This document shows positions 14,360 to 57,492 of a stretch of 64,000 nucleotides of DNA, piece by piece. The stretch's first letter is position 1. Each line of letters starts with the position of its first letter. Where the stretch lies: IMG/VR virus record IMGVR_UViG_3300045988_159421; one strand, 5' to 3'. This stretch comes from a virus. The notes under the pieces are model-generated. The model did not search any database and had not been told where the DNA came from. It was given only the letters and a program-made list of their open reading frames with translations. Both the position numbers and the translations under genes were made by a program.

Positions 14360-14403
14360 ATTCTAATCTCCCAACAATACTTTTTCAATCGGAACATATT
14401 CCT
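14360..14403 (-). promoter_or_regulatory. box-A promoter: 17-nt conserved box fused to -35 TTGAAA, 17-nt spacer, -10 TAGAAT
   Basis: Minus strand AGGAATATGTTCCGATTGAAA-N17-TAGAAT, about 20 nt upstream of tRNA-Gln. The box is identical to four other copies. Confidence 0.6.
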
Positions 14404-14405
14404 AA

Positions 14406-14430
14406 TAAAAAAAGCCAGATTTCTCTGACT
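14406..14430 (-). terminator. intrinsic terminator after the recombinase gene
   Basis: Minus-strand hairpin AGTCAGA-GAAA-TCTGGCT followed by TTTTTTT. Confidence 0.6.
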
Positions 14431-14453
14431 TTTAAAATGTATTATTTATTTTC

Positions 14454-15035
14454 TTATTGATATTCTTTCATTCTTCTAATTAGTGTAGCTTTGCTTATTC
14501 CTGTTACTTCTGTAACTTGCTTATAACTCATGCCACTTTGCTTTAGATCAATGGCATGCTTAATTTGTTTGTTTGAATACTTTTGCGGTCTACCTTCTGT
14601 AAAATCTTCTCTTTGTTTTGCTATCGCCTTACCTTCTTTTGTTCTTTCAACTATCATATCTCTTTCAAATTCAGCAAATGCAAGGAAAATAGTTCTTGTT
14701 AATTTTCCATTAGGTGTATTATCCATTAATCCTAAGTTTACTATATGAACTTTTATATCTTGTTCTAGTAACTTATCTATTATGCTTAATCCGTGTATTG
14801 TACTTCTAGCAAATCTGTCTAATTTAGTTACTACTAATGTGTCTCCTGGTTTTAATTGTTTAAGAAGTTTATCGAAATTTTTTCTATCTTCTTGTTTCTT
14901 TGTTCCAGTAAAAGAATCAACTACGATATTTTCTTTTAAACATCCATTTGCTAATAGTATTTCTGTTTGGCCTTCTAATGAGTTACCATCTTTCTTTTGT
15001 GAATAAGTACTAACTCTTGCATATCCGTATTTCAT
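14454..15035 (-). CDS. small serine recombinase (resolvase/invertase family)
   Basis: N-terminal [13 protein letters not shown] catalytic-serine motif, 193 aa, C-terminal HTH ([22 protein letters not shown]). Confidence 0.85.
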
Positions 15036-15071
15036 ATTTACAACCCCCTATGATTTATCTTTTATACTTAT

Positions 15072-15100
15072 ATTGTATCATAAGTCTTAAGAGTTGTAAA
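15072..15100 (-). promoter_or_regulatory. sigma-A-type promoter for the recombinase gene
   Basis: Minus strand TTTACA-N17-TACAAT with a TG extended -10. Confidence 0.5.
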
Positions 15101-15135
15101 CCTAATTATAAAAATTTAACTTTTATTTTTAACGT

Positions 15136-16401
15136 TTAAATATACGCAAATGTATATCCATAAGTTGTTTTTTGTTTTCCTTGTAACACTTTTTCTATGC
15201 TTTTTCTTGGAATATCAAGTTTTCTTGCACAAACTCCTATTCCTTCAATAATTTCTTCTGAATTATCTTTTAAATTTGTTGCTTTAATAGTTTTCTTAGG
15301 AGTAACTTTTTTACTATATTTAGCTTTTATTGCTAATATAGAAGTATAATCCTTACTTTCTATATATGGAATTAACTGTTGTTTTACATTTATAGCATCT
15401 TCTTCTGTTTTAAAATGACCTATTGGTATCTGATTTCCATTAAAGGTTATTCTTAAAAACCAGCTTTTAGCTTTAACATCATAATTAATGCCTTTTACAT
15501 CAGATTTATACATAGTAGTATTTTTCTTGTTTCGCATATTATGTAAAAAAGAATAATCTATTTTCTGTCTTTCACGCATTTTTTCATATGTTTTTCTGCA
15601 ACAATCCATATATTTTTCCATTTCAATATGTGTTGTTATTCCTATTTGTTTACCTTTTAAAAACTTTTCTTTATTTCGCAAATCATTAACTTCTTTAAAA
15701 ATCAAAGAAAAATCTTTAACATTGCTTTTTTTTAAAATTCTTTTAATTGTATCTTGAGAAAGTTTATATTTTTCACTAATTTCATTAAGTAAGTATTTTT
15801 TAGAATATAAATCTTTAACTATATTTTCATTTCTAGTTTCTTTATTATTTATAATTTTAAGTTTTTCATTTAAATCAGATCTAACATCTACCCATGAATT
15901 AAGATATTTAACATTATAAATAACTTTTTCTCTTACTCCAGTTAATCTAGCTATTTTCTTTATAGAGATTGGATTATTTTCTAGTTCCGATAACATTTCT
16001 TTAACTTTAGCAATTTGATGTTCTGTATAATCACTTCTTTCTCTAGTTACCTTCTTTAAATTTTCTAATCTTTTCTTTCGTATTTCCTCTGGAATCTCAT
16101 TTAAAAAATAATCTCCACCTTCTGTCATATTAAATCCATTATTATAAGTATCATATTTTTTTATATAATACTTTTCTAAATCATTTAAAATGTCAAGTTC
16201 ATCACAATAATGTATAGCTTTAAACTTAAAAGCACCTTCTCCATATTTATTCCAACTTCTTTGAAGATATTCATTGTCATGATTTCCTCTGTTCAAAGCA
16301 CTTATATGACTTTTCCATCTTTTTTCAAAATCTTGAATTGTTTGCCCTATATACATATCGCCTGTTACTACATTTGTTATTGAGTAAATTCCAAAAGGCA
16401 T
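15136..16401 (-). CDS. free-standing GIY-YIG homing endonuclease with an AP2-like DNA-binding C-terminus
   Basis: N-terminus GIYSITNVVTGDMYIGQT (GIY...YIG), followed by R..H and N motifs. Repeated HTH-like modules. C-terminal GINYDVKAKSWFLRITFNGNQIPIGHFKTEEDA is AP2-like. Confidence 0.8.
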   Translation of the reverse strand: MPFGIYSITNVVTGDMYIGQTIQDFEKRWKSHISALNRGNHDNEYLQRSWNKYGEGAFKFKAIHYCDELDILNDLEKYYIKKYDTYNNGFNMTEGGDYFLNEIPEEIRKKRLENLKKVTRERSDYTEHQIAKVKEMLSELENNPISIKKIARLTGVREKVIYNVKYLNSWVDVRSDLNEKLKIINNKETRNENIVKDLYSKKYLLNEISEKYKLSQDTIKRILKKSNVKDFSLIFKEVNDLRNKEKFLKGKQIGITTHIEMEKYMDCCRKTYEKMRERQKIDYSFLHNMRNKKNTTMYKSDVKGINYDVKAKSWFLRITFNGNQIPIGHFKTEEDAINVKQQLIPYIESKDYTSILAIKAKYSKKVTPKKTIKATNLKDNSEEIIEGIGVCARKLDIPRKSIEKVLQGKQKTTYGYTFAYI

Positions 16402-16940
16402 TCTCTTACCCCCTTATCGAAAGTTTTAAAAAAATTTTTGTGGAATTTTTTGAGATTTTGTTTTACTTGTTATCCCTCAGGTTTCAAAAAATATATTGCA
16501 ACACTATAGCCCTTGGCGCACGCGTTGAAAATACTGGGGTATAGAATGCACCGCCCTCTTACCTGGAGTACCCTACCCCACCGAGAGACCCTTGTTTTGC
16601 CTTGTTACTTATGACACTAAGTTATAAGACAAGTAAACATATTGATATTACTTACTGTGTCAAAGTGTATCATAACTTATAAGTATTGATACCTTATAGA
16701 GTACTATTAATGCTGTTGTCTTTTACTATACTGGTCTTACTGTTCACTCTATTGTCTTATACCCTCTGTGCGCCCCTCTAAGACGTTGCGCTTTGTCTTG
16801 TTTGTCCTTATTCTATTGGTAATATATTCCTTGTCTTAATAGTTGTTATAGCTTAATACTATTAAAATGACTATTCCAACAGATTTTCAACAGCGACACC
16901 TCTTAAATACGGACCGCGATAAGCGCCCACATATAATCCC

Positions 16941-17408
16941 CTACGATATTTCACTATCTTTTATATCTATTACATTCCCTTCTATAACATCTGAATCATT
17001 AAAGTCATCCCAAGAAGGTTCATTATTATTTTCTTTTTCAGTTTCAGGAGTAATAACTGTTTTAGTTTCCACTTTTGAAATTGGAGCGCCAGCCAATCTA
17101 TTAAGTAAGTATATGCTTGCATCTAGTCTAACCTTCTCGCTCTTAGCTGATCTTGATAGGTCGAGAATATTTTGTAAAAGTTGATTAGAGAATTTCATTA
17201 TACGATTGTCAACTTTATTTTTAGCAACTTCATATTGTCTATCAAGTTCTTCCATGAATTCTGGTCTTTTCTTCCAGCGCATTATAGTTTTTTCACAAAC
17301 ATCTAATTGGTCTGCTACTTCTTTATTAGTTGCACCATACACTAATAATTCTGCTGCAATTAATTGGTCTTCTGTTAACCTAGAATCTTTTTCTCGTGGC
17401 ATAATCAA
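16941..17408 (-). CDS. HTH protein, possible terminase small subunit
   Basis: N-terminal HTH (TNKEVADQLDVCEKTIMRWKKR), 155 aa, acidic tail. It is the first gene of the packaging-side block, but is separated from terL by about 4 kb of insertions. Confidence 0.35.
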   Translation of the reverse strand: MIMPREKDSRLTEDQLIAAELLVYGATNKEVADQLDVCEKTIMRWKKRPEFMEELDRQYEVAKNKVDNRIMKFSNQLLQNILDLSRSAKSEKVRLDASIYLLNRLAGAPISKVETKTVITPETEKENNNEPSWDDFNDSDVIEGNVIDIKDSEIS

Positions 17409-19275: not shown

Positions 19276-19284
19276 TGTTATAAT
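19276..19284 (+). promoter_or_regulatory. extended -10 element (TGTTATAAT) upstream of the csf operon
   Basis: TGTTATAAT lies about 26 nt upstream of the GTG start. RBS AAAGGAGGTG at 19291-19300. The -35 is weak. Confidence 0.4.
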
Positions 19285-19309: not shown

Positions 19310-20044
19310 GTGAATAATACACAAATATTAGCTAAACACTGTAAAAAAGTTGAAGTAAAAGAACTTAAAGAAAAAGATAATTGTTTTTTGTGTGGTTGTG
19401 AAATAAAAAAAGGTATTCCTGTAAAAAAAGTTATCAGTAGTAATTTTACAAACTTTGAATTCTGTAAAAATATAAATGGTAATAATTGCTGTCAAGATTG
19501 TGCATCAACTATAAAAAATGCTGATTTAAGAAAAAATAGCTTTGTTGCGGATAAAGATAATCTGTATTTGCTAAAGAAAAACGATATAGAGAATTATTTA
19601 TTTGACTTAGACAAATATGTAAAAGGTGAATTCGTAGTAGGCATTACTGTATCATTTAAAAAACATAATTCTTTTAGATGCAGAGTCAATCAAGACACTT
19701 TGAAGTATTATATAAGACAAGAAGACAAAGAATTTCTGTTTGATGTAAAAGAAATGAAATATTTGTATAGCAAACTTAATGAGGCTTATTTGCAATTTTC
19801 AAAAGATGAAATATTATCAGGAAACTATTCAACTATTGCTATTGAACAATTTGGATTAGATAAATTTATCGAATATGAAACTTTATTTAGAAAATACAGA
19901 AAATCATATCAATTTGAGCTACTTGTATATATTCTAAATTCAGAACGTAGAAATGAATATATAAAACAAAAACAGAAAGAACAAAAAGAACAAGCAGCTA
20001 AATTAAAAGCTATTAAAAAGCAATCTAAAAAAGGGGGAAAATAA
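19310..20044 (+). CDS. csf1: Csf1-like type IV large subunit (Zn-finger protein)
   Basis: 244 aa, GTG start after a strong RBS. Cys clusters CFLCGC and CCQDC about 35 aa apart. First gene of an operon with Cas11-, Cas7- and Cas5-like genes. Confidence 0.55.
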   Translation: MNNTQILAKHCKKVEVKELKEKDNCFLCGCEIKKGIPVKKVISSNFTNFEFCKNINGNNCCQDCASTIKNADLRKNSFVADKDNLYLLKKNDIENYLFDLDKYVKGEFVVGITVSFKKHNSFRCRVNQDTLKYYIRQEDKEFLFDVKEMKYLYSKLNEAYLQFSKDEILSGNYSTIAIEQFGLDKFIEYETLFRKYRKSYQFELLVYILNSERRNEYIKQKQKEQKEQAAKLKAIKKQSKKGGK

Positions 20045-20045
20045 T

Positions 20046-20420
20046 ATGGATAAAAACATACAACAATATTGTGTTTCAACATTATCTGAAATTTGGGCGC
20101 AAATAGATTGGGATAAAGTAAAAGGTAGCAGAGCACTTGGTATTTGGGATGAATTTACAGCTAAAGTAAAATCTACTGCTATGACTACTACTAGTTATGA
20201 AACTTTTGTAGAAAAACTTTGTAGAAAAATGGACGTAAGAAGTTTAAGATTTGCTATGATTAGTGAAATTTCAGAATTGAGCGAAGATATAAAAAAACAA
20301 ATATTAAAATGTTTTAGATCAGAAACTCAAATTATAATTTTGAAACTTAGACTTCAAAATCAAATAAGAAAAGAACAAATGCAAAGAGAAAAAGAAGCAG
20401 CTGCAAATAAGGAGGATTAG
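20046..20420 (+). CDS. cas11: Cas11-like small subunit
   Basis: 124 aa, predicted all-helical and charged. Starts 1 nt after the csf1 stop. Position matches type IV cas11. Confidence 0.45.
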   Translation: MDKNIQQYCVSTLSEIWAQIDWDKVKGSRALGIWDEFTAKVKSTAMTTTSYETFVEKLCRKMDVRSLRFAMISEISELSEDIKKQILKCFRSETQIIILKLRLQNQIRKEQMQREKEAAANKED

Positions 20421-20423
20421 AGA

Positions 20424-21254
20424 ATGAAAAAAGATATAACATTAAAATTGTTAAGCCCGCTTATGCATTATGGGGACGAAAGAATGGGTACTATGCAAGT
20501 AGCTAGATGTATGAAATTTGAATATAACGGAGAATTTATAGATATACCAGTTTATAGTGGAAATGCTTTTAGAGGAATTATGAGACGTATTGCAATGAGA
20601 GATTTCTTAGAAAAAATAGACATAGCAGAAGAAGGCATAAGTCCTAAATTATATTATTTACTTTTCACAGGTGGAACTCTTACAGGAGGCGGGCGCTTTT
20701 GTGAAATAGGTGAAAAAAGAGAAATGAGACGTTTATGTATTCCACTTAGTTTATTTGGAAGTGCAATTGGAGATCAAATTCCAGAAGGTAAAATGAAAGT
20801 CGGAATTTTCAAACCTATTTGCCAAGAAACAGCTGAGTATACAGGGAAACCTAGTAATGTATCTTTTTATGACATGTTAGATGAAATATTCTATACTAGA
20901 CACGATGATCTAAAATGCACTAATTATGATTTAATAAAAGATTCAGAAGATAAAAAGGATAAAAAAGATAATCCTGTTCAAATGAAATATGAAATGCAAG
21001 CATTAAGTGCTGGAACTAACTTAGTTTCTTCAATTGTAATAGAAAATTCTAATGACATAGAAGAATCTTGCTTAGAATCTATAATAGAAAAATTCAAAGA
21101 AATGCCTTTTATAGGTGGTAAAAGTGCTACAGGACATGGTGAAGTTGAAGTATTTTATGAAGGTAAAAAAGGTTCTGAGTTATATTATAATCATCTAGAA
21201 CAAAACAAAGATGAAATAAGGGAATGGCTTAGAAATTTAGAAGGGAAATTATAA
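20424..21254 (+). CDS. csf2: Csf2 (type IV Cas7) RAMP backbone protein
   Basis: N-terminal strand ITLKLLSPLMHYG, motif IPVYSGNAFRGIMRR, and C-terminal glycine-rich loop FIGGKSATGHGEVEV. These are classic RAMP/Cas7 signatures. Confidence 0.65.
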   Translation: MKKDITLKLLSPLMHYGDERMGTMQVARCMKFEYNGEFIDIPVYSGNAFRGIMRRIAMRDFLEKIDIAEEGISPKLYYLLFTGGTLTGGGRFCEIGEKREMRRLCIPLSLFGSAIGDQIPEGKMKVGIFKPICQETAEYTGKPSNVSFYDMLDEIFYTRHDDLKCTNYDLIKDSEDKKDKKDNPVQMKYEMQALSAGTNLVSSIVIENSNDIEESCLESIIEKFKEMPFIGGKSATGHGEVEVFYEGKKGSELYYNHLEQNKDEIREWLRNLEGKL

Positions 21255-21256
21255 AA

Positions 21257-22045
21257 ATGACACTTGATAATTTCTTAGAAATAGGTTCAATATGGTCTGC
21301 CTCTAATCAATTTCTCAGAAAATTACAAAACTCAAAAGAAATTGTTAAAGAACAACTATTAAAATATGATAAACCGTATATTTGTTTAAGTGGTGGTAAA
21401 GATAGTGTTGTAATGGCCTTTTTAATTGCTGATGTAATACAACATGATATAAAAGATTATAAAGGAGATATTATATTGTGGGGGCATGTTAGTGATGCAT
21501 CTTATCCAGGAACAATTGAAACTATGGAAAAAGTATCTAGTCAAACTGGAATAAAACTTGTTCTAGATACTTCTCCAGTATCTGCTTTTGAAGTTTTGGA
21601 CGATTCTGTTGTAAAGCAATTCGGTAAACAAGGTTATTTCTTTGATGCTATAGAAAATTGTATAAATACTTACGAAAGAAATTTAAGTTTTATAGGTGTA
21701 AGAGCATATGAAAGTAGAAGAAGGATGAGAGCAGTAAAAGCTCATGGTATGACTTTTACTTCTAATGTACCTACATTCTGTAATATATGCTATCCTCTTG
21801 CTTGGTATAAACTAGAGGACGTTGCAGCATTAACTTATATGTATAATACTCCTATTCACCCTGTTTACTCAAAAGTAGATACTAGATTAAAATATAGTTG
21901 CACAGATGAAGGCTGGATAAGACTAGGTTATTTAACTGCTAAAGATTTGTTAAATCAAGGTTCTGCAGTATTTATAAAAAGAAATTATCCTGAGCAGTTT
22001 GAAAAGTTAGCTCAACATTATCCTGAAATAAGGAACTATATTTAA
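21257..22045 (+). CDS. cysH: CysH-like PAPS reductase/PP-loop ATP pyrophosphatase family protein
   Basis: PP-loop motif CLSGGKDSVV near residue 44. 262 aa. Embedded between the cas7-like and cas5-like genes. Confidence 0.7.
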   Translation: MTLDNFLEIGSIWSASNQFLRKLQNSKEIVKEQLLKYDKPYICLSGGKDSVVMAFLIADVIQHDIKDYKGDIILWGHVSDASYPGTIETMEKVSSQTGIKLVLDTSPVSAFEVLDDSVVKQFGKQGYFFDAIENCINTYERNLSFIGVRAYESRRRMRAVKAHGMTFTSNVPTFCNICYPLAWYKLEDVAALTYMYNTPIHPVYSKVDTRLKYSCTDEGWIRLGYLTAKDLLNQGSAVFIKRNYPEQFEKLAQHYPEIRNYI

Positions 22046-22062
22046 AAGGGGGTTGAAAATAT

Positions 22063-22764
22063 ATGTTTAAAAACTTCAAAGTAATAGCACATTTAGGAAG
22101 CCCTCTTTGTGCTATAGATGATATCATATTAGATTCTGTTATAAGTGCTGCAATGTACAAAGATTTACTTAAAGATGACTATTATTTTGGTTCAAATAAG
22201 TACGGAACAAAAGAACAAATAGATAGTATGCTATCAACAATATTAGATAAGCAATATGGCATTTATTGTACAAGTTATGGTTTTGGAAATGACAGAGAAA
22301 CTATTTCTAGTTGGTCCAAAAGGTTTGATGTAAAGAATGATGATCTAATAAAATTTACTGGAAAAGCTAAACATAGAGTTGACTTAGGAGCTGGATACTT
22401 TAAAAATTATCATATACCTATAGTTTTAAAGTCAGTAAAGACTTTGACTTTCTATGTTAGAGGTGATATGGAAAGAATTAAATATTTATTAGAAAATTAT
22501 ATTTTTTACCTTGGCAAAAAACCTTCACAAGGTTACGGAGAAATTAGATATTGGGAATTTGAAGAAATTAAAGATAATATAAGTGTATTAAATAAAGAAA
22601 ATAAAAATATGAGAAATATTCCTTTTGATGAAATTAGTGATATACTCGAACAAAATGCTAGTACGAGTAAAAACAAATCAGAAGATTTTACATTTAATCT
22701 AAAAAAAATGCCAGTAATCCCACCTTATTGGAGACCAGATTGTAAAAAAGTTTGTGTGGTATAA
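22063..22764 (+). CDS. csf3: Csf3 (type IV Cas5) RAMP protein
   Basis: N-terminus VIAHLGSPLCAIDDIILDSVISAAM (the xPLxLDxxLxxA pattern of Csf3/Cas5) and glycine-rich loop LGKKPSQGYGEI. Confidence 0.6.
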   Translation: MFKNFKVIAHLGSPLCAIDDIILDSVISAAMYKDLLKDDYYFGSNKYGTKEQIDSMLSTILDKQYGIYCTSYGFGNDRETISSWSKRFDVKNDDLIKFTGKAKHRVDLGAGYFKNYHIPIVLKSVKTLTFYVRGDMERIKYLLENYIFYLGKKPSQGYGEIRYWEFEEIKDNISVLNKENKNMRNIPFDEISDILEQNASTSKNKSEDFTFNLKKMPVIPPYWRPDCKKVCVV

Positions 22765-28915: not shown

Positions 28916-28916
28916 A

Positions 28917-34323: not shown

Positions 34324-35328
34324 TTATTTTTCCTCATAAAAAGTTATATTTTTTAATACTATGTCGAATGTTCCATTTTCGTTTTTTCTAAAGCTGTATT
34401 TCATTGGATCTTCAAAATCTGTTAACTTTCCTTTTATACTAAAACCAGTATCAGTTTTTATATTTCTGTTTTTAAGTTTCTTTTCAATCCATTTCTTGTC
34501 TATTTCAAAGTTTTCAGTTAAACCTCTATCCTCCATATGTTCATTAAAGCTTTCTTGTAATTCTTTATCTTGAATACTATTTTCAGCAAATTTTTTAACA
34601 TCTAGAGTTTCTTTTTCTTTTAAAGTATAATTAAGCATACTTCTTATATCTTCGGCCATTTTCAAATCTTCTGATATTGCATTTGTTATCCAGTTATCTG
34701 CAGTTTTCTTAAATACTTTTGTTTTATATTTATCATCTTCTATCTTTTCAGCATTTAGAAACTCTGTTAAAAATTTAGTTTCTAGTTGGTCCTTTTCTGC
34801 ATCTTTGTCTAATAATCTAAAGTGATAATAATCATTCACTCCATTAGGTCCAACTATTACACATTGCTTTTGTCGGCCTGTTTCAGGTATACCTATCTCA
34901 TTTGATGCGATTTGTATGTTAAATTTATCTTCTACATATTCTATTGAATGAGTATAAAGTTTTTTATAATCAAGTTTTATAATTGCTACATTTTTTTCAT
35001 CTTTAACACTGTATAAACATATTGCTAAATCACAAGAATCTATTTCATTATTTCGTTGCATTACTTCAAATAAATATGCTGCTATCTCTTTTGAGTTTTG
35101 TAAGAATGTCTTTTCATCGTAAATTATTTGTTCACAGCAATTTTTTACGATATTATCGTTGTAATCTTTGAATTTTGCTTTTCTTAGATCATCATCTTTT
35201 AAAACTCTAGTTATTATCTTTTGGAAAAACTTATCTACTTCTAAACTATTTTTACATTCATAGTCATTTAATATTGGAGCATCACTATTTGTATCTAGTA
35301 CATGTATTATTGATTTATGTATTATCAT
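34324..35328 (-). CDS. nucleoid-associated protein (NdpA/YejK-like)
   Basis: 334 aa. The N-terminus IIHKSIIHVLD resembles the family N-terminus. Recognised from memory only. Confidence 0.4.
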   Translation of the reverse strand: MIIHKSIIHVLDTNSDAPILNDYECKNSLEVDKFFQKIITRVLKDDDLRKAKFKDYNDNIVKNCCEQIIYDEKTFLQNSKEIAAYLFEVMQRNNEIDSCDLAICLYSVKDEKNVAIIKLDYKKLYTHSIEYVEDKFNIQIASNEIGIPETGRQKQCVIVGPNGVNDYYHFRLLDKDAEKDQLETKFLTEFLNAEKIEDDKYKTKVFKKTADNWITNAISEDLKMAEDIRSMLNYTLKEKETLDVKKFAENSIQDKELQESFNEHMEDRGLTENFEIDKKWIEKKLKNRNIKTDTGFSIKGKLTDFEDPMKYSFRKNENGTFDIVLKNITFYEEK

Positions 35329-35798
35329 TTTTCTTCCCCTTTCAATGCATCTTGGCCAAATAAGGCTACTGCCATTTTTTCGATTATTTTCTTTTTAATG
35401 TAATGTACATTTGCTATTGTACAATCAAACTCCTCGGCAATATCTTTAAGAGTTTTTTCTTCAAAGTAAATATATTTAAATATCTTTCTTTGTTTTTCAC
35501 TCATGCTTTTAAACACTTCTGATATCACCTTTCTGTTTTTTTTATGTTCAAATATATCTCCCTCAACTTTTGCAATTAAATCATCTATTCTTATAACTTC
35601 ATTTTCTATAGGTCTATTAATTGCATGAGTTGGAGAAGATTTAACCATATCATTACAAACTGCCTTTATCGCCCCCCTATCTCCGTCCTTTATCTTTTTT
35701 ATATGTTCTTCCTTTTGCTGTATATAGATAGTTATAAATTTCATGTTTTTTAAAATCATTTCTGTTTCTTCCATAACATCTTTATTCAAACATTCCAC
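35325..35798 (-). CDS. sigma-70-family (region 4) transcription factor
   Basis: C-terminus SEKQRKIFKYIYFEEKTLKDIAEEFDCTIANVHYIKKKIIEKM is a region-4 HTH. Confidence 0.55.
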   Translation of the reverse strand: MECLNKDVMEETEMILKNMKFITIYIQQKEEHIKKIKDGDRGAIKAVCNDMVKSSPTHAINRPIENEVIRIDDLIAKVEGDIFEHKKNRKVISEVFKSMSEKQRKIFKYIYFEEKTLKDIAEEFDCTIANVHYIKKKIIEKMAVALFGQDALKGEEK

Positions 35799-36246: not shown

Positions 36247-36490
36247 CCTCCCAGTCTAAAAAGTAATTTAAACAATCTTTGCAACTTTTAAATTTTGTAC
36301 AATTTTTTATATAAAAATCACTTTTACATAAGTCTATTTGTATTAAATCAGTTATAACATCACAAGAGCTTTTTAAGTTTTCAACTAAATATTTAAATAC
36401 CTGGTCTTTATCACTCTCTATTCTGCCTTTACTCATAAGAGCTACGTATTGAAAAACTTTCACTTTATCACCATCCTCTAACTCCAGCAT
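36215..36490 (-). CDS. hypothetical protein
   Basis: 91-aa ORF. Confidence 0.35.
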   Translation of the reverse strand: MLELEDGDKVKVFQYVALMSKGRIESDKDQVFKYLVENLKSSCDVITDLIQIDLCKSDFYIKNCTKFKSCKDCLNYFLDWEVDYEEVQRMQ

Positions 36491-36857
36491 ATTGAACTTC
36501 TTTCGTCTTTAACTCTTTTAAATATGCATCTAGTTCATTTGGATTAAGTTTATAAACCTTAATTGTATTTCCATTAGTTTTTTCTAATTTTTGTACTTTT
36601 GGTACAAATGCATTTTTAATATTTTTACTTGTTCTTAAGCATCCACAACTTTTTACTTTCTTTTTTAGTAAACTAGATCTAACTACTAATTTTTCATTTC
36701 CACACTCACATTTACATAAGTAATAATCGTATTTTATTTTTCCTCTATTTCTTTTTCCAGCATACTCTACAACTGTAAGCTTTCCTATTTTCTTTCCTAC
36801 TAAATCTTGTTTGTCAACTTTTCCAAAAGGTCTTCCCATTATATTAACCCCCTTCAA
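36468..36857 (-). CDS. hypothetical Cys-rich basic protein
   Basis: 129-aa ORF with CKCECGN...CGC. Confidence 0.4.
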   Translation of the reverse strand: MKGVNIMGRPFGKVDKQDLVGKKIGKLTVVEYAGKRNRGKIKYDYYLCKCECGNEKLVVRSSLLKKKVKSCGCLRTSKNIKNAFVPKVQKLEKTNGNTIKVYKLNPNELDAYLKELKTKEVQYAGVRGW

Positions 36858-47359: not shown

Positions 47360-47560
47360 CTATTTGTATTCAGAATCAAATAAGTCAGTTATTCTACAAC
47401 CTAAAGCTATCGCTATTTTTTCTAGCTTTACTAGATCCAGTACTGTATCGTTATTCTCCAGTCTAAAGAGAGTACTTTTACTTAGTTTAGTTTTGTATGC
47501 TAACTTTCTAAGACTATGATTTTTCTCGTTTCTTACCTTTGAAATATTGTTAATTATCAT
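47360..47560 (-). CDS. XRE-family HTH regulator (66 aa)
   Basis: NHSLRKLAYKTKLSKSTLFRLENN HTH. Confidence 0.55.
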   Translation of the reverse strand: MIINNISKVRNEKNHSLRKLAYKTKLSKSTLFRLENNDTVLDLVKLEKIAIALGCRITDLFDSEYK

Positions 47561-47637
47561 AAAATTTATTCTAAAATAACTGCTTTTTCTCGTAAATGTA
47601 AAATATTTGGTTAATATTCCACAAAAACACTAGAAAA

Positions 47638-47718
47638 GAAAAAAAATCCACCTTCCGCAAGATGGATTTTCTTCTAAATAATCATAGGTCATATATAAGA
47701 TACAGAAATACTTTTAAC
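47638..47718 (-). ncRNA. candidate sRNA 1 (box-B promoter to intrinsic terminator, about 80 nt)
   Basis: Box plus TTTTCA-N17-TATAAT at 47725-47768. Terminator hairpin ATCCATCTT-GCGG-AAGGTGGAT plus T8 at 47638-47667. Confidence 0.55.
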
Positions 47719-47724: not shown

Positions 47725-47768
47725 ATTATAACATTCCAATACTTATTTGAAAATCGGAACATATTCCT
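47725..47768 (-). promoter_or_regulatory. box-B promoter
   Basis: AGGAATATGTTCCGATTTTCA-N17-TATAAT on the minus strand. Confidence 0.6.
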
Positions 47769-47777
47769 AACTTTTAC

Positions 47778-47906
47778 AAAAAAACAACCGCTCTTGATGA
47801 GGGTTAAGAGCGGTTAGGGAGTATTGTTTCATACCATAAATTCTAATGATAAACAATATACTAGAAATATTTTAGGAATAAAAAAATATAATCTTAGATA
47901 ACTATA
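47778..47906 (-). ncRNA. candidate sRNA 2 (box-C promoter to terminator, about 130 nt)
   Basis: Terminator AACCGCTCTT-N10-AAGAGCGGTT plus GTTTTTTT at 47778-47815. Contains the CU-rich ACTCCC. Confidence 0.55.
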
Positions 47907-47912: not shown

Positions 47913-47956
47913 ATGATACTACTGTTTTTTCAAAACTTCAATCGGAACATATTCCT
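47913..47956 (-). promoter_or_regulatory. box-C promoter
   Basis: AGGAATATGTTCCGATTGAAG-N17-TATCAT on the minus strand. Confidence 0.6.
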
Positions 47957-47965
47957 AATTAACAA

Positions 47966-48058
47966 TAAAAAATAACTACCTCACAGATGGAAAGGTAGTT
48001 ATTCTTTAAGAAAGGAGTACTTATATTAGTAATATAGCTAAAACTTTAAGTCTTATAC
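47966..48058 (-). ncRNA. candidate sRNA 3 (box-D promoter to terminator, about 90 nt)
   Basis: Terminator AATAACTACCT...AGGTAGTTATT plus TTTTT at 47966-48002. Contains the anti-SD-like ACTCCTTTCTT. Confidence 0.55.
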
Positions 48059-48064: not shown

Positions 48065-48108
48065 AGATTAACACCTTTCATTTCCAATTACAATCGGAAC
48101 ATATTCCT
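48065..48108 (-). promoter_or_regulatory. box-D promoter
   Basis: AGGAATATGTTCCGATTGTAA-N17-TAATCT on the minus strand. Confidence 0.6.
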
Positions 48109-48268
48109 ATATATTTTTAGGGTATGAAACTATAACTGTAGATTAATAAGAAAACGTACTTTGACAAGTGAATATAAAATTTATTACTTAAAATAACTTT
48201 AACTGTGGAAATTATAACTTTAATTGTGGTATAATAAGGTATATTTATTAAAGGAGGAAGATTCTTTT

Positions 48269-48823
48269 ATGGATAAAAAAAGTATAGAATTTTTAAAAGA
48301 ATTACAAAGTGAAATGCTAACACAAAATGAAATACTAACACAAGGTACTAGTAATCTTAGATTTTGGGTGGTAACAGACGAAAGAAAAATATATAGTGAA
48401 GATGATTATGACGGTCAAGAAATAATATTTGAGGGGGACGTAATAGGAGAAAACCTAAAAGATTTATGTGATTTTTTAGTTGATTATGATGATAAAATTA
48501 GAATATCATACAATAAAGAAAATGACTATGTAGAATTTTTAGACAAAGATGGGCATAAAACTACATTATTTGAAGTAGAAGGACTTGTAGATTATTTAAA
48601 TAATGAATTAGATTATGATATACATTTAAATAATTATAAAATAGAAGAAATTATAGTACCAAATACAATGTTTTTAACTTTGAGAGAATGCAGAGAACAT
48701 ATTAAATCAAACGAACATCATTATAACAAACCATCTGCTTATGGGATGTCAGCAGAGAAAAGCTCTCAAGCAAAACAATTATATAATATACTATTAAAAA
48801 CTAATTGGGATGAAGTAAAATAA
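48269..48823 (+). CDS. hypothetical acidic protein translationally coupled to a transposase gene
   Basis: ATG 48269 after AAGGAGGAAG. 184 aa. Stop is 1 nt before the transposase ATG. Preceded by TGGTATAAT and a direct repeat ATAACTTTAAYTGTGG x2. Confidence 0.5.
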   Translation: MDKKSIEFLKELQSEMLTQNEILTQGTSNLRFWVVTDERKIYSEDDYDGQEIIFEGDVIGENLKDLCDFLVDYDDKIRISYNKENDYVEFLDKDGHKTTLFEVEGLVDYLNNELDYDIHLNNYKIEEIIVPNTMFLTLRECREHIKSNEHHYNKPSAYGMSAEKSSQAKQLYNILLKTNWDEVK

Positions 48824-48824
48824 T

Positions 48825-50138
48825 ATGAATATACTAAATTTACCAGAATTTGAAGTTTTAGACACAATACAAGATGACCATGATATGACGGTAATAGTAA
48901 GACCAGTTAAAGCGCCTGTGGCTTGCCCAGAGTGTGGTGGAGTTGAATATTATAAGCATGGTAAATCCAAACGATTTGTAAGGGATTTAAATAGCTTTGG
49001 CAAACGAGTAGGGATTGAAATACATACACACAGATATAAATGCAGATACTGCGGTACTACATTTAGTCAACATTACAAAAGTATTGACGATAGAGATAAA
49101 ATCACTATTCGTTTAAGAGAGCAAATAGAAAAAGAATCCCTTAAAAAGCCATTCGCCAATATAGCAGAAGAATATAGTGTTTCTCCTACTACAGTAAAGA
49201 GAATATTTAATGCTTACATAGAAAGGTTAGAAAAGGATATGACATTCCTCACTCCAGTTATATTAGGTATAGACGAAGCACATCTAAATAAAAGCATGAG
49301 AGCCGTTTATACCGATATAATTGGACGTAAGGTATTGGATATCCAGCCAAGCCGTAAGAAGTCCGATGTAAAGGCTTTTCTGAGTAAATTGCCTAACAAG
49401 GAGAATATAGAAGTAGTAACCATAGACATGTGGAGATATTACAAAGAGGCAGTATATGAGGAGTTGCCAAAAGCTCAGGTAATAGTTGATAGATTCCATG
49501 TAATACAATTAGTTAACAATGCTTTAGAAGGTGAGAGAAAGTCATTTAAAGGCTCTTTAGACAGAAAGCAAAGGTCTAAGTTGTTAAAAGATAGATTCTT
49601 GCTACTGAGGAATAAAGAGGATTTAAATGCTAGACAGATTTGGGATATGCAACTAATGTTTTTAGACTTTCCACAGTTAAAGTTAGCCTATGAGTTAAAG
49701 GAACAATTTAGGGATATCTATAAACACGATAACCGAGAAGATGCTCTAAGGGCTTATGAGGACTGGAAGAAGGCAGTACCAAAGGATATGAAATACTATC
49801 AAGATGTTATTAAAACAGTTGATAACTGGCAGTATGAGATATTTAACTACTTTACTTGTAGAATCACAAATGCTTATACAGAGAGTTTAAACAACTTGAT
49901 TAAGAACATCGAGAAAGCTGGTAGAGGTTACTCTTTTGAGGTACTTAGAGCAAAGGTGCTATTTGGTACAAGTGCTACTAGAAAACCTAAATACACAAGA
50001 GCAAATACAAGTAACAAAACATATACATTTACTACGGCATTTAGTTGGAATGATTTCGTAGGAAGTACAAAATTAACAGAAGGATTTGGAGTAGATATTC
50101 CACAACTACTAGAGGTATTAGAGAGTGATAAGTTTTAA
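48825..50138 (+). CDS. ISL3-family transposase (second, divergent copy)
   Basis: 437 aa. LNLPEFEV N-terminus, CPECGG...CRYCGT zinc finger, GIDEAH...VVTIDMW...DRFHV DDE region. Confidence 0.75.
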   Translation: MNILNLPEFEVLDTIQDDHDMTVIVRPVKAPVACPECGGVEYYKHGKSKRFVRDLNSFGKRVGIEIHTHRYKCRYCGTTFSQHYKSIDDRDKITIRLREQIEKESLKKPFANIAEEYSVSPTTVKRIFNAYIERLEKDMTFLTPVILGIDEAHLNKSMRAVYTDIIGRKVLDIQPSRKKSDVKAFLSKLPNKENIEVVTIDMWRYYKEAVYEELPKAQVIVDRFHVIQLVNNALEGERKSFKGSLDRKQRSKLLKDRFLLLRNKEDLNARQIWDMQLMFLDFPQLKLAYELKEQFRDIYKHDNREDALRAYEDWKKAVPKDMKYYQDVIKTVDNWQYEIFNYFTCRITNAYTESLNNLIKNIEKAGRGYSFEVLRAKVLFGTSATRKPKYTRANTSNKTYTFTTAFSWNDFVGSTKLTEGFGVDIPQLLEVLESDKF

Positions 50139-50647: not shown

Positions 50648-51106
50648 TTACCCTAGTAATTCATATAATCGTTGTTGTCTTTCATACTCTTTTAAAGCCT
50701 TTTGAGATTTATTTCTAAACTCTAATCTTAGATTCGATCTTCTACAATTTTCAGGATTATTATCTTTGAATACTATTTTAAAAAATCTTGTATTATATGC
50801 TCCAAAGAATCCTTCGTAAACTAATTTATGAACTGGAATATTTTTTCTTTTACCATTTTGGACCAATGTTACAGTTTTATATCTATGAGTATAAAAAACT
50901 TTCAGCTCTTTCCAAACAACACTTCCATAATCAATTTTATCTAGTGTTTGATGCTCAAATCTTTTCTTGCTGCTAAATACTCTTCCAAAACTTGTTATGT
51001 AATAATCATCAAAGTTTGTAACTGGAACAGCATCTTCACCTATAAATAAATAATCTTTAATTGTATCTTTCATCAAGTTCTTCCAGTTGCTCTCTGTTAT
51101 ACTCAC
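50648..51106 (-). CDS. HNH homing endonuclease (NUMOD4 plus HNH_3-like)
   Basis: YYITSFGRVFS (NUMOD4-like) and PVHKLVYEGFFG. Confidence 0.55.
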   Translation of the reverse strand: MSITESNWKNLMKDTIKDYLFIGEDAVPVTNFDDYYITSFGRVFSSKKRFEHQTLDKIDYGSVVWKELKVFYTHRYKTVTLVQNGKRKNIPVHKLVYEGFFGAYNTRFFKIVFKDNNPENCRRSNLRLEFRNKSQKALKEYERQQRLYELLG

Positions 51107-53663: not shown

Positions 53664-53968
53664 ATAAAAAACCTCCTATCTGTAAAGTGTGTCACTTCTC
53701 TTTTTAAAAAGTGTATCACTTTAAAAAACAAAAATCAATATATAATTCTAAAATAATAATATTGGTTAAGATATTAACATTATTTTAACTATAAACAACA
53801 TTTTAATAAAATATTAACTAAAATATATATTAATATATTAACAAAATTTAAACAATAATTAAGATGTTATTAATATTTAAACTATTTTATTGACTTTTGT
53901 ATTTTTTTATCATATACTTTAATTAAGATATTATTAAAATATCAACTAACATTAGGAGGGATTTATAT

Positions 53969-54892: not shown

Positions 54893-54904
54893 AGGTGATT
54901 AATT

Positions 54905-55198
54905 ATGGCAAAAAAATCAAGTACAGTATATATAGAAGAAAATTTTTGGGATATGATAAGCAAGTTTCAAGCAGAAAGAGATTTATCAAGCAGAAATGAT
55001 GCAATACAAGTAATATTAAGTGAGTGGAATATCCTAAAACAAATTGACTTCAACAATATACAAGTTAATGTAAATATCGGTGATGTTTCACAAGTTGTTA
55101 GACAAATAGAAAATACAGAACTAACAAAAGAAGAAAATGAAGACCAAAGAATTATAAAAGAAACTCTTCTTAAAATGGAAGAAGAAATGCCTGATTAA
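54905..55198 (+). CDS. parR: ParR-like RHH centromere-binding adaptor
   Basis: 97 aa immediately downstream of parM. N-terminal RHH-like STVYIEENFWDMISKFQAERDLSSRNDAIQVILSEW. Confidence 0.5.
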   Translation: MAKKSSTVYIEENFWDMISKFQAERDLSSRNDAIQVILSEWNILKQIDFNNIQVNVNIGDVSQVVRQIENTELTKEENEDQRIIKETLLKMEEEMPD

Positions 55199-55204
55199 AA
55201 AGAT

Positions 55205-55237
55205 AAGCTAAGGTTTCAGATAGCCTTAGCTTTTTTG
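55205..55237 (+). terminator. intrinsic terminator after parR
   Basis: AAGCTAAGG...CCTTAGCTT hairpin plus TTTTTTG. Confidence 0.6.
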
Positions 55238-55340
55238 TTTATTCTCAACCGAATCAAGTAGCCTACTAATAGGTCATATGAGTGGTTTTTTCTTGTCTAA
55301 AATAAAAAAGCTAGAGGAGAGTATCCCCTAGCTTTTAATA

Positions 55341-55384
55341 TTATCGGTCGCTTATCGGTCGCTTATCGGTCGCTTATCGGTCGC
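55341..55384. repeat. four perfect tandem 11-bp repeats TTATCGGTCGC
   Basis: Read directly. The last unit forms the inverted repeat TATCGG/CCGATA with 55387-55392. Confidence 0.95.
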
Positions 55385-55395
55385 GTCCGATAGAA

Positions 55396-56274
55396 TTATT
55401 TTTCAAATACTTCTACATATTTTGGGCTGGCAGTGATATATACTCCTGATTTTAATTTATACATATCTGTTCCAGTTCTTTTAATTTTTTCTGTAATTGT
55501 ATAAACTCCACCAGCAGTAACTTTACCAATAGTATTTTCTTCTGTAAAGTCAGCTTTGCTATGTATATTTACATCCTTTAGTATTTTAACGTACTCAACT
55601 TTAGTAGCTTCTTCTTGCTTTTCTGCTATATAAGTTACTCCGAAGTATTCGCATACCGCCTTACAAACGGCCTCAGCACATTTTTCTTGATGTTTTTTAT
55701 CAAGCATAAGTTTTGCTTCATTCCAATAATCCATAAAACCATACTCGATTAATATTGCTGGCATTGTTGTTTGTCTAAGTATAGCTAATGTAAATCCACT
55801 CATATCTACATCTTTCATAAGTCCGTAGCTATATTCATAATCTATGTCCTTTTCAAGATGCTTAACTGCTAAATTACCTAATTTAATAGAGTTAGAAGAA
55901 GAATTTTTAGTATGCATAACTAATAACCCTTTAACTCGAGTTTGCCATTTAGCACAGCTTCCTATTGCATTATAGTGATTTGAAATTAATATATCTGCTT
56001 TAGCTTTATTAGCTTTACTTGCTCTAGTAGACAAGGCAATATCTGTTTTACCTGTCATATCTGCAGTAAACATTGTATCTATACCACATCTCTTTAGCGC
56101 AGCAGCTAGATATTCACTTACACCTCTGTTCCATTCATTTTCTTTTATGATCTTTCCTTTTGCTCTTACTAATTCATTATCTATATACAAATTTTTTGAC
56201 ATTGGTACTGATTGTTTACCTTCTGTATGCATACCATGTCCTGCATCTATAGCTACTAAATATTTTTTACTCAT
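55396..56274 (-). CDS. endolysin: N-acetylmuramoyl-L-alanine amidase (Amidase_3) with a C-terminal binding domain
   Basis: VAIDAGHG and ISNHYNA motifs. 292 aa. Lies downstream of the holin genes. Confidence 0.85.
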   Translation of the reverse strand: MSKKYLVAIDAGHGMHTEGKQSVPMSKNLYIDNELVRAKGKIIKENEWNRGVSEYLAAALKRCGIDTMFTADMTGKTDIALSTRASKANKAKADILISNHYNAIGSCAKWQTRVKGLLVMHTKNSSSNSIKLGNLAVKHLEKDIDYEYSYGLMKDVDMSGFTLAILRQTTMPAILIEYGFMDYWNEAKLMLDKKHQEKCAEAVCKAVCEYFGVTYIAEKQEEATKVEYVKILKDVNIHSKADFTEENTIGKVTAGGVYTITEKIKRTGTDMYKLKSGVYITASPKYVEVFEK

Positions 56275-56369
56275 AATAACACTTCCTTTTCTAAAAATAA
56301 AAGATGCTTAAAAAAATCTACATTTATATCGAATTTCTAAGCACCTTACAGTTTATAAAATATTTATAT

Positions 56370-56627
56370 CTATTGTTCTATTAAATTCTTAAATGCCTGA
56401 TGTAATCCCGTAGATGCTAGTCCACTTAAAAGCCCTCCTAAGAAAATATTCATATCAAATGATTTAGATATTGATATGTTTAATACAACACCTAATACAG
56501 CCATTATGAAAGGAATATACTTATTAGGAATAAAATCAAAGCTAGTTTTTATAACATATCCTATTCCACAACAACCTAATACAACTCCAATGACTAAATA
56601 ACTATTAATAACATTTAAATCTATCAT
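56370..56627 (-). CDS. holin
   Basis: 85 aa with three hydrophobic helices, immediately upstream of the endolysin gene. Confidence 0.6.
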   Translation of the reverse strand: MIDLNVINSYLVIGVVLGCCGIGYVIKTSFDFIPNKYIPFIMAVLGVVLNISISKSFDMNIFLGGLLSGLASTGLHQAFKNLIEQ

Positions 56628-56637
56628 AATTAACCTC

Positions 56638-56871
56638 CTATTCTTCTAAGTGATCTATTCTGTGATGTGCAGACTTTGTTGAATCTTCTACTTTTGCCAT
56701 TCTTTCTACTAAATTATTATGTTTATCTACTCTAGTTGATAAAGTTTTTATATCTTCTTTTATACCTTTGATTTGTTCTTGCATTACTGCAGTAGTTTTA
56801 CTATTTGCAAAATAAGAACCAGCTAAAGTCCCTATAAATGCTATAATAGCAACAATTATTTCTGTTTGCAT
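56638..56871 (-). CDS. XhlA-like haemolysin/holin-accessory protein
   Basis: One N-terminal TM (IIVAIIAFIGTLAGSYF) plus a coiled coil ending HHRIDHLEE. The likely start is ATG 56871. Confidence 0.55.
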   Translation of the reverse strand: MQTEIIVAIIAFIGTLAGSYFANSKTTAVMQEQIKGIKEDIKTLSTRVDKHNNLVERMAKVEDSTKSAHHRIDHLEE

Positions 56872-56891
56872 ATTAATACCTCTCAATTTTC

Positions 56892-57161
56892 TTAAGTATG
56901 TTTTACTCTATCTCTAAGTTCTCCTTTTTTACCATCGTTAAATTGTCGAACCTCACTTAAATAACCTGTGATTCTTCTGATTCTTTCAAATGAAACAGGA
57001 ACAAGTTTATATTCTAAATCTACATATCCTTTATCATCTATTGTTATATTTAGATATTCAATTTCTCGATTTGGATATTTTTTATGAATATGTTTTATGT
57101 AAGCTTCGATTTCTCTTTGTTCAGCATGAACTCCTTCTGGAGTTTTTATATTTATTTTCAT
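56892..57161 (-). CDS. stand-alone NrdD C-terminal glycyl-radical-domain-like mini-protein
   Basis: The C-terminus RIRRITGYLSEVRQFNDGKKGELRDRVKH matches the class III RNR glycyl radical tail (R..GYL...FN.GK..E...RVKH). Only 89 aa. Confidence 0.55.
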   Translation of the reverse strand: MKINIKTPEGVHAEQREIEAYIKHIHKKYPNREIEYLNITIDDKGYVDLEYKLVPVSFERIRRITGYLSEVRQFNDGKKGELRDRVKHT

Positions 57162-57181
57162 CTTTTCAAACTCCTTTTTAC

Positions 57182-57448
57182 AAAATAAAAAGGATTACAA
57201 ATTAGTAACCCCCTTAGAAAAAATGGTAAGTGCCTCTAAATACTATATACACATATAACTTTTAAAATTAAAATTCGATTAAAATATAAATGTTTTTTTA
57301 TTAAGTCCACATTGGAATCACCCTCTTTCATAGCCAATAAGCAAAAGAAGGACCCACTCTAAAAGTAAGTCCTTTCCGGAAAAGGTTATTAAACCGATTC
57401 CTTTGCTCGTTGGGGTTTCAAATGAGAAATTATTTTATCTACAATTAT
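57182..57448 (-). promoter_or_regulatory. structured 5' leader with a terminal weak terminator ahead of the lysis cassette (candidate riboswitch/attenuator)
   Basis: A long-range helix AGCAAAGGAA/TTCTTTTGCT encloses the hairpins CCTTT-TCCGG-AAAGG and GGAC...GTCC. Then ATTGG...CCAAT. Then GGTTAC-TAATTT-GTAATC plus CTTTTTATTTT just before the RBS. Confidence 0.4.
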
Positions 57449-57492
57449 AGTGTAAATTCCCAATAACAAATTTGCAATCGGAACATATTCCT
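57449..57492 (-). promoter_or_regulatory. box-E promoter
   Basis: AGGAATATGTTCCGATTGCAA-N17-TACACT on the minus strand. Confidence 0.5.

Follow-up and report, generated by a model that had tools for sequence, protein, structure and literature searches.

A 64,000-nt stretch of viral DNA, IMG/VR record IMGVR_UViG_3300045988_159421 (the window in what follows), carries five exact copies of a 17-nt box, AATCGGAACATATTCCT, each fused in the same way to a predicted sigma-A promoter on the minus strand. The box is very probably an operator, i.e. a regulator-binding site built into these promoters. The window has 27 % G/C, is transcribed mostly leftward and encodes terS, a split terL, portal, tail, holin, amidase, a DnaD/Rep-like initiator, a ParM-like partition pair and XRE-type regulators, a gene content that indicates a siphovirus-like phage-plasmid. 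The site itself, its geometry, its conservation and its distribution are directly evident in the data.

The explanation we favour, and hold at not far short of an even chance, is that the box forms the operator part of a composite cassette of near-palindrome, TTGnnA -35, 17-bp spacer and TAnnnT -10, which would be bound by a dimeric helix-turn-helix (HTH) regulator from the mobile element. Four or five transcription units, insulated by terminators, would thereby be joined in one regulon. One starts with tRNA-Gln, GOLLD RNA and further tRNAs and would continue into terL and the structural genes; two or three others would give small RNAs (sRNAs), and the last consists of an sRNA-like leader with the lysis cassette. 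The preferred regulator is HTH66, a 66-amino-acid (aa) XRE-type HTH protein, which as a repressor would occlude sigma region 4 or the alpha C-terminal domain at otherwise strong promoters and would silence the units in the plasmid-prophage state.

An earlier note on this DNA had described five copies of the box in one orientation, containing the dyad GGAA-N4-TTCC and joined to -35 and -10 hexamers at constant spacing, and all of this is borne out. The copies start at 14387, 47752, 47940, 48092 and 57476 on the plus strand, whereas 0.22 matches with up to three mismatches are expected by chance in shuffled sequence, and none of 100 shuffles reached six such matches. The sole near-copy (27971, three mismatches) lies within an open reading frame (ORF) and is at chance level; degenerate copies were not seen in the window. 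GGAA-N4-TTCC occurs in the window at the five boxes only, and searches for GGAATAT-N3-CC and TGTTCCGATT with at most one mismatch returned only the five boxes and a half-like site at 47609-47620. The five copies and their hexamers are as follows.

14387-14403, minus strand: box A; -35 TTGAAA (14383-14388), -10 TAGAAT (14360-14365), predicted start at about 14353
47752-47768, minus strand: box B; -35 TTTTCA, -10 TATAAT (47725-47730), TGn upstream
47940-47956, minus strand: box C; -35 TTGAAG, -10 TATCAT (47913-47918)
48092-48108, minus strand: box D; -35 TTGTAA, -10 TAATCT (48065-48070), TGn upstream
57476-57492, minus strand: box E; -35 TTGCAA, -10 TACACT (57449-57454)

Read from the minus strand the box is AGGAATATGTTCCGATT, and in all five copies its final TT supplies the first two bases of the -35 hexamer, which is followed by a 17-nt spacer (5/5) and a -10 of the form TAnnnT, often with TGn before it. 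The hallmarks of sigma-A promoters are the A at position 6 of the -35 and TA...T in the -10. A TTGnnA-like -35, a spacer within 16-18 bp and a TAnnnT -10, directed toward the downstream gene, are found at every copy, so that all five are predicted sigma-A promoters. The conserved site is longer than the 17-mer, by two nucleotides upstream (TT) and usually one downstream (G), and the full site is a 19-20 bp near-palindrome, TT-AGGAA-TATG-TTCCGATT, with TTCCGATT as the half-site. The extended copies A, C and E read ATTAGGAATATGTTCCGATT, with 7 of 10 pairs symmetric when counted by eye, while a natural A1->C variant, AATCGGAATATGTTCCGATT, is a near-perfect palindrome with 9 of 10. The box spans about -53 to -34, and its centre of symmetry, at about -43.5, places it over the -35. 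A dyad within about 14-22 bp that is conserved independently of its flanks is what is expected of the operator of a dimeric HTH protein. In symmetry and fixed register the site fits the dimeric protein docked beside the -35 that the earlier note proposed. An UP element, A/T-rich, non-palindromic and located at -40 to -60, does not describe a dyad-symmetric box with six G/C in 17 nt.

A second conserved block, TTGGGA(A/G)AT, lies directly 5' of the -10 (minus strand) at 14366-14374, 47731-47739 and 57455-57463; in promoter B it reads TTGGAATGT. In the window this block is confined to box promoters A, B and E; in the satellite-like element described below it also occurs at promoters that lack the box.

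Distribution of the box beyond the window

IMG/VR was scanned for the bare 17-mer, with no promoter required, and gave 78 loci from about 35 contigs of 36-75 kb. Complete genomes have four to five boxes in the same three places, and the search of related phage-plasmids that had been suggested earlier recovered the box in the family with its geometry kept. The contexts comprise classes A, B, C, D (three variants) and E (two variants, with -10 TACACT or TAAAAT), a new class F and a promoter in L044. In all real contexts TAnnnT lies 17 nt after the TT of the box, except for one A variant with a 16-nt spacer, and since the scan did not ask for a promoter this is an unbiased confirmation of the geometry. 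Three matches (L008, L011 and L037) were treated as chance. The metagenome query required T+box+N21+TAnnnT, and the -10 was thus presupposed there; it added human-gut contigs and new contexts. The approximately 18 distinct contexts give the consensus TT-AGGAATATGTTCCGATT-G.aA...(TTGGGAnAT)-TA.AaT, i.e. an imperfect palindrome of 19-20 bp. They come from a phage-plasmid family of 62-78 kb, a 9.44-kb circle, a third phage and the Stk2 gene of Intestinibacter bartlettii. In a scan of one genome per species (185,579 species), 83 stretches with the box were found where about 69 are expected by chance according to our own estimate, and the only ones that seem genuine are L146, which is part of the phage family, and L153.

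In the third phage (L277/L294) an exact box is located between the tail-fibre gene and the lysis cassette and is predicted, in L294, to drive the lysis mRNA directly. The holin and endolysin of this phage are 51-53 % identical to those of the window, and the DNA cannot be aligned. The exact box at this orthologous lysis promoter is the strongest sign of what would be purifying selection on the box. In I. bartlettii N19 (L153, 5670-7281) an exact box with TTTAAA-17-TAGAAT heads the gene of a 509-aa kinase, a full-length Stk2 anti-phage defence kinase (PADLOC E 2.5e-189), and the same arrangement was found in three gut metagenome contigs (L273, L281 and L295), one of 183 kb. No phage genes were found within 8-13 kb of the Stk2 loci, which point to a Peptostreptococcaceae host. 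The Stk2 gene adjoins a HicB-like gene and a gene with a GGACT domain.

The circular element belongs to a family of about 9.4-9.7 kb (L044, L279, L249, L267, L286, L289, L297, L301, L308, L309 and L311). Circularity is concluded from terminal overlaps, which measure 19-123 nt in most contigs and 55-123 nt in those of about 9.44 kb; L044 is 9564 nt as a whole, with a unique circle of 9441 nt. Its genes, all on a single strand, encode an XRE protein, a scaffold-like protein, an HK97 major capsid protein, VapE/primase, a ribbon-helix-helix (RHH) protein, a membrane protein, an HNH protein, an HTH66 homologue and a 179-aa ORF. Genes for terminase, portal, tail and integrase are all missing, and the element therefore looks like a capsid-encoding satellite of the phage-plasmid. 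It has two box promoters, one heading an sRNA and the other heading the operon of XRE, scaffold and HK97 capsid genes. DNA similarity to the window is limited to about 70 nt of promoter, within which the box is exact.

It is possible to read this distribution differently, with the box as the perfect consensus site of a global or stress regulator of Intestinibacter or Peptostreptococcaceae, which mobile elements would have adopted for timing late functions as prophages and Staphylococcus aureus pathogenicity islands use LexA boxes. At least three mobile elements with no relation to one another carry the box, as does a chromosomal defence island with no phage genes close to it, which suits such a host factor. 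So does the fact that the box-bearing elements have almost nothing else in common; compared by eye with the consensus, the promoter-proximal half, ATATGTTCC, also resembles half a Firmicute LexA (Cheo) box. However, the representative I. bartlettii genome has one exact copy only, and the other genome matches are about what chance gives. Host regulons are normally degenerate, and no degenerate copies were seen, the host genomes not having been scanned by weight matrix. The full site also misfits the LexA register (GAAC-N4-GTTC) and the other motifs compared, and we consider a host factor improbable. Compared by eye with the full Cheo box, CGAAC-N4-GTTCG, ATATGTTCC alone fits, the distal half being TAGGA. 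None of the sites of SigH, SigE/F/G/K, extracytoplasmic function (ECF) sigma factors, LexA/Cheo, the ARG box, NrdR, CodY, cre, Rex or the T4 MotA box, all compared by eye, fits.

Some contigs (L282, L073 and L317) have different flanks on either side of the box, which suggests that boxes are mosaic junctions and would suit a recombination, partition or replication site; alternatively, the box might be the -35 element of an alternative sigma factor. Both a serine recombinase, encoded beside box A (14454-15035), and a protein with sigma region 4 are present in the window. These mosaic contigs are, however, of low coverage and possibly assembly chimeras. The copies are all direct and in promoter register, unlike the 26-bp hix/gix sites, and the partition region has repeats of its own, which speaks against recombination sites and centromeres; a recombination site was among the cases that the earlier note had named as refuting its reading. 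As to an alternative sigma factor, the -10 is sigma-A-like (TAnnnT, TGn), the conserved block at -50 to -38 lies too far upstream for a -35, and GGAAC on the plus strand has no conserved partner. We regard these readings together as highly improbable. The same observations led to the rejection of an ECF or other alternative-sigma promoter (no conserved plus-strand partner of GGAAC, a sigma-A-like minus-strand -10) and of a serine-invertase site, centromere or iterons (direct copies, with separate par/rep repeats at 53766-53948 and 55341-55384).

Transcription units headed by the boxes

What the earlier note had placed downstream of the boxes is found there: tRNAs and GOLLD after box A, three predicted terminator-bounded RNAs after boxes B-D, and a structured leader after box E. 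The gene order on the side of box A is terS, homing endonuclease, serine recombinase, terminator, box A, RNA cluster and terL.

16941-17408: terS, upstream of box A and beyond the terminator
14454-15035: serine recombinase, adjoining box A
14410-14433, minus strand: intrinsic terminator of the upstream serine-recombinase gene, insulating unit A from upstream transcription
13133-14340, minus strand: RNA cargo of unit A (tRNA-Gln, GOLLD, tRNA-Arg/Ile/Ser)
14267-14340, minus strand: tRNA-Gln
13406-13864, minus strand: Rfam match of GOLLD RNA (RF02032), inside a tRNA-free stretch (13391-14266)
13133-13390, minus strand: tRNA-Arg/Ile/Ser

GOLLD is among the largest bacterial and phage non-coding RNAs. 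It was identified here by Rfam RF02032 with 187 bits against a threshold of 150, and among the box-headed RNAs only GOLLD and the tRNAs reached their Rfam thresholds. GOLLD is known to form a 14-mer nanocage of which the function is not known, and its level has been reported to increase in phage lysis (PMC12286853). One relative (L276, 295-700) lacks GOLLD and tRNA-Gln/Ile/Ser, and what comes after its box A is a pair of short hairpin units, tRNA-Arg and the terL region; GOLLD is therefore dispensable for the phage family, while the promoter has been retained. No terminator was found between the tRNAs and the following 57-aa ORF and split terL (9991-12885).

On the minus strand an HNH/homing-endonuclease gene (11297-12103) separates the N-terminal (12205-12885) from the C-terminal portion (9991-11091) of terL, an arrangement that may represent an intron or a split gene. 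Other homing-endonuclease-like genes are at 15136-16401, 36468-36857 and 50648-51106.

Boxes D, C and B stand in tandem, and the array lies just upstream of the HTH66 gene. Each box heads a short predicted RNA.

about 47963-48058, minus strand: predicted sRNA D, 96 nt, with unpaired ACUCCUUUCU and a terminator
about 47775-47906, minus strand: predicted sRNA C, 132 nt, with unpaired ACUCCCUAA and a terminator
about 47636-47718, minus strand: predicted sRNA B, 83 nt, with a terminator at 47639-47674

Rfam searches of the B-D region and of the leader after box E gave nothing credible at E<=1. The motif AYACUCCY, unpaired and directly 5' to the terminator, is common to sRNAs C, D and F (class F from L013); in sRNA D it reads CUCCUUUCU and resembles the 3' tail of 16S rRNA. 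This suggests that they may be regulators pairing with ribosome-binding sites. When seed targets were sought by BLAST in the window and the satellite, the strand setting was such that most matches were the loci of the sRNAs themselves. Pairing of the box-driven sRNAs with the repeat of the family's CRISPR (clustered regularly interspaced short palindromic repeats) arrays, in the manner of a tracrRNA, was rejected (z-scores -1.2 to +1.2). Immediately upstream of box D lie an ISL3-family transposase gene and a 199-aa ORF (phrog_3205) at 48224-50138 on the plus strand. The transposase is missing from several relatives of which the flanks were read or annotated; L321 has the same transposase arrangement, and the upstream flank of L014 matches that of the window.

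Box E is located after the terminator of the tail operon; between it and the lysis cassette comes a leader, about 290 nt long, in which two hairpins resemble terminators.

about 57338-57442, minus strand: predicted sRNA-like first segment of the leader, with a hairpin at 57348-57374
57188-57215, minus strand: second leader hairpin
55396-57161, minus strand: lysis cassette (NrdD fragment, 82-aa ORF, holin, amidase)
56892-57161, minus strand: 89-aa NrdD C-terminal (glycyl-radical) fragment, first gene of the cassette
56370-56627, minus strand: holin
55396-56274, minus strand: amidase

A separate promoter for the lysis cassette was not found in the window. The 89-aa ORF matches the C-terminal glycyl-radical segment of NrdD only, like a spare-part glycyl-radical protein.

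The earlier note had taken these units for a dedicated RNA regulon. It is true that RNA genes come first in all five units of the window, but the box is not specific to RNA: boxes in relatives head protein operons, namely the lysis genes of L294, the satellite capsid operon and the host Stk2 gene. In the window itself, the lack of a terminator between the tRNAs and terL and of a separate lysis promoter indicates that units A and E most likely run on into coding genes. The regulon is better termed one of late and accessory units, which in this phage start with RNA genes.

The arrangement of these units also brings to mind lambda pR' and its 6S RNA. By this analogy the box promoters would be constitutive, normally giving short terminated RNAs, and a Q-like factor loaded at the box would permit read-through past the terminators. 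A short RNA with a strong terminator comes after each of boxes B, C, D and E and the first satellite box, the lysis genes lie behind two terminator-like hairpins with no promoter of their own, and a very long late operon follows box A. On the other hand, the box of the third phage and the second box of the satellite drive coding genes with no terminator between, no Q-like protein was recognised, and the conserved unpaired C-rich (anti-Shine-Dalgarno-like) motifs of sRNAs C, D and F are typical of free-standing sRNAs. Antitermination is thus very unlikely to be the role of the box.

Candidate regulators and related systems

For an operator, protein binding, the identity of the protein and the sign of regulation are what we infer. 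Of the proteins encoded in the window, two come into question as binders.

47360-47560, minus strand: HTH66, 66-aa XRE-type HTH protein, candidate box binder, nearest structures CylR2 and SinR
47591-47596 and 47568-47573, minus strand: HTH66 promoter, TTTACG, 17 nt, TAGAAT
35325-35798, minus strand: 157-aa protein with sigma-70 region 4 and a weak RinA-family match, in an early leftward operon

HTH66 as the box-binding protein is a tentative assignment, somewhat below an even chance. Among the phage-plasmid loci that were fetched via HTH66 and had enough upstream sequence, all have two to three boxes upstream of the gene except one rearranged locus, in which the two boxes lie about 2 kb further upstream. 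In IMG/VR the HTH66 protein clade is found in box-bearing elements only. Three proteins are common to the satellite and the window; the HTH66 homologue is the most similar of them and the sole DNA-binding one. Identity to this satellite homologue (HTH67) is 61 % in L044 and 53-64 % across variants, and the recognition helix SKST..R.EN is invariant between HTH66 and the satellite homologues. With its own HTH66 copy and the same operator on its capsid operon, the satellite would answer one signal together with the phage-plasmid. The best PDB matches of HTH66 are CylR2 (66 aa, aligned residues 1-62; E 2e-4, a weak similarity) and SinR. CylR2 and SinR are small dimeric regulators and both are repressors; as dimers they occupy inverted repeats about 20 bp long, which lie next to the -35 of the repressed promoter or cover it. 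Likeness to the CylR2/SinR kind thus lies in the protein; the similarity is weak, the operator sequence is unrelated, and no CylR1-like partner was identified.

Several points weigh against HTH66 as a repressor acting at the box. As its recognition helix differs little from the general consensus of XRE proteins, the invariance is weak evidence. Homologues of at most 56 % identity in other, unrelated phages (L185-L241) are accompanied by no box and have no common repeats. The 8-14 kb available for the third phage and for the host Stk2 locus contain the box and encode no homologue of HTH66. For a 66-aa repressor the mechanism of inactivation is not obvious, and a host defence gene with the operator of a phage repressor would be hard to rationalise. 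That none of the 17-19 positions varies, not even in the central TATG, is more than a simple HTH dimer would usually impose, and the distal arm is asymmetric, TTAGGAA rather than AATCGGAA. Finally, a fixed phase at about -43.5 in otherwise unrelated spacers is classic class II activator geometry and would fit a RinA/GerE-like protein at least as well. An alignment-seeded search found one more distant HTH66 homologue (43 %) and no new box-bearing element.

HTH66 lies in the immunity region. Its ATG is located 7 nt past the -10, so that its mRNA would be leaderless, and relatives keep this geometry. A half-box-like sequence, GGAATATTAACC / GGAATATTAACCAAAT (47609-47620), precedes its promoter. 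The box as a CI immunity operator was rejected, since no box lies in the CI/early switch region, where the repeats are of another, CGTT type.

Whether the regulator would repress or activate is roughly even, with a slight lean to repression. This lean comes from the near-consensus core promoters, e.g. TTGCAA-17-TATAAT, and from L243, where the orthologous satellite promoter has no box and has kept the core TTGCAA-17-TATAAT.

The 157-aa protein would be the regulator if the box were instead a LuxR-type class II site, at which this sigma-region-4/GerE/RinA-like protein would turn on the packaging and structural genes (with GOLLD and the tRNAs), lysis and the sRNAs late in infection, while the satellite capsid operon and Stk2 would eavesdrop. 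The earlier note had listed 35325-35798 as a sigma factor; the sigma-70 region 4 is indeed present, and nothing further was found except the weak RinA-family match. The register of the box to the -35 and -10 is fixed despite unrelated spacers, and its centre at about -43.5 is near the -41.5 expected of a class II activator site. The regulons of the RinA/ArpU super-family cover packaging and lysis, and here box A precedes terL while box E and the box of the third phage precede lysis cassettes. The 157-aa protein itself has an HTH of the sigma70_r4/GerE type and a weak full-length RinA match, and is encoded in a long early leftward operon. A box on the satellite capsid operon, with no homologue of the 157-aa protein in the satellite, would be typical helper dependence, and an abortive-infection kinase such as Stk2 under a phage-activated promoter would make defensive sense. 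Comparison of the 157-aa protein with the 179-aa protein of the satellite gave no meaningful similarity. Class II-dependent promoters, however, usually lack a good -35, whereas here a good TTGnnA -35 (TTGCAA/TTGAAA) and a -10 are already present, and the box-less L243 orthologue keeps this core. The RinA-family match is below the family cut-off (21.4 against 31.9 bits), and the gene lies 18 kb from terS. A terminator separates box A from terS on its upstream side, and the box is therefore no part of a terS promoter as it would be in RinA systems. A late activator of this kind therefore seems rather unlikely to us. A RinA/ArpU late-activator system in the strict sense was rejected on the positions of terS (16941-17408), of the regulator-like gene (35325-35798) and of box A, which is downstream of terS.

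We continue to prefer HTH66 acting as a repressor, and in comparison with known systems an operator of a phage regulon is of a known kind. The closest concept is the late-promoter site shared by P2 and P4. As with P2 Ogr and P4 Delta, one invariant dyad is found on temperate-phage late promoters and on a satellite operon related to the capsid. The P2/P4 site, however, is TGT-N12-ACA near -55 and is bound by zinc-finger activators, whereas the present one contains GGAA-N4-TTCC and is a 20-bp palindrome near -43.5, over the -35; no Ogr-like protein is encoded, and the present helper, which looks like a phage-plasmid, belongs to a Gram-positive anaerobic host. The box is comparable with the sites of lambda CI at OR2/PRM and of LuxR-type activators, where a dimeric HTH protein has a target 17-20 bp long, next to or over the -35, centred at about -42 to -43.5 and fixed in phase. 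Their promoters have a poor -35 and depend on the activator, while here both hexamers come close to consensus and one orthologous promoter has no box. RinA, ArpU and LtrC resemble the present case in a regulon of packaging or structural genes and lysis, and a RinA-like sigma-r4 protein is encoded; they differ in that here the terS promoter has no box, the gene lies apart from terS and the family score is below cut-off.

The motif, its exactness, its regulon of GOLLD, sRNAs and lysis genes, and its spread over a phage-plasmid, a satellite-like circle, a phage and a host gene appear to be undescribed, and a search for the 12-mer of the box found no paper containing it in the library covered. A more far-reaching idea, which we regard as doubtful, is that the box is a trans-acting code across conflicting genomes, one phage-plasmid regulator controlling its own units, the capsid operon of the satellite and a chromosomal Stk2 abortive-infection kinase, for which the phage operator would serve to sense infection. 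If this were true, the satellite would parasitise a phage family that targets it with CRISPR spacers, one of them on a satellite box promoter. The shared site could expose a conflict circuit of helper, satellite and host in a common human gut anaerobe. The box is a concrete and mutable handle on the transcription of GOLLD, and predicts co-regulation of GOLLD with the lysis cassette and the sRNAs. Should it be an ordinary repressor operator and no more, it would be of use mainly for annotation and as a tightly defined promoter-operator part for the engineering of Peptostreptococcaceae.

Other features of the window and CRISPR arrays of its relatives

A megablast search of phage GenBank sequences with the window found no close relative, and a more distant search matched the tRNAs and the recombinase only. 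One candidate plasmid site lies upstream of the ParM-like gene (53766-53948), with degenerate repeats of 26-36 nt and an inverted repeat of 70 nt; another follows the ParR-like gene (55341-55384), has an 11-bp unit (TTATCGGTCGC) four times in tandem and is matched by a CRISPR spacer of the relative L067.

The window has an effector operon of a type IV-B-like CRISPR-Cas system at 19310-22764 on the plus strand, encoding Csf1/Cas8-like, Cas11, Csf2/Cas7, CysH-like (PAPS-reductase-like) and Csf3/Cas5 proteins. It has no Cas6 and no CRISPR array, and relatives hold arrays elsewhere in the genome. These have two to eight copies of a 37-nt repeat, GTTTTAATCCTTGTTTAACTGGAATATATTCTGTTAC, and lie downstream of the endolysin gene (L012 6647-6830, L018, L027, L033 1454-1676 on the plus strand, L045, L049, L056, L067 6928-7510, L250 2525-2710, L293, L316 and L319); the array of L012 is about 2.1 kb downstream of box E. 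About 9 of the 37 spacers match sibling phage-plasmids, and two hit the window, at 56494-56530 (holin) and 55068-55105. About 20 of the 37 match the 9.4-kb element, one of them on a satellite box promoter, and in being aimed at this element the spacers of the phage family resemble the arms race of phage and satellite known from ICP1 and PLE.

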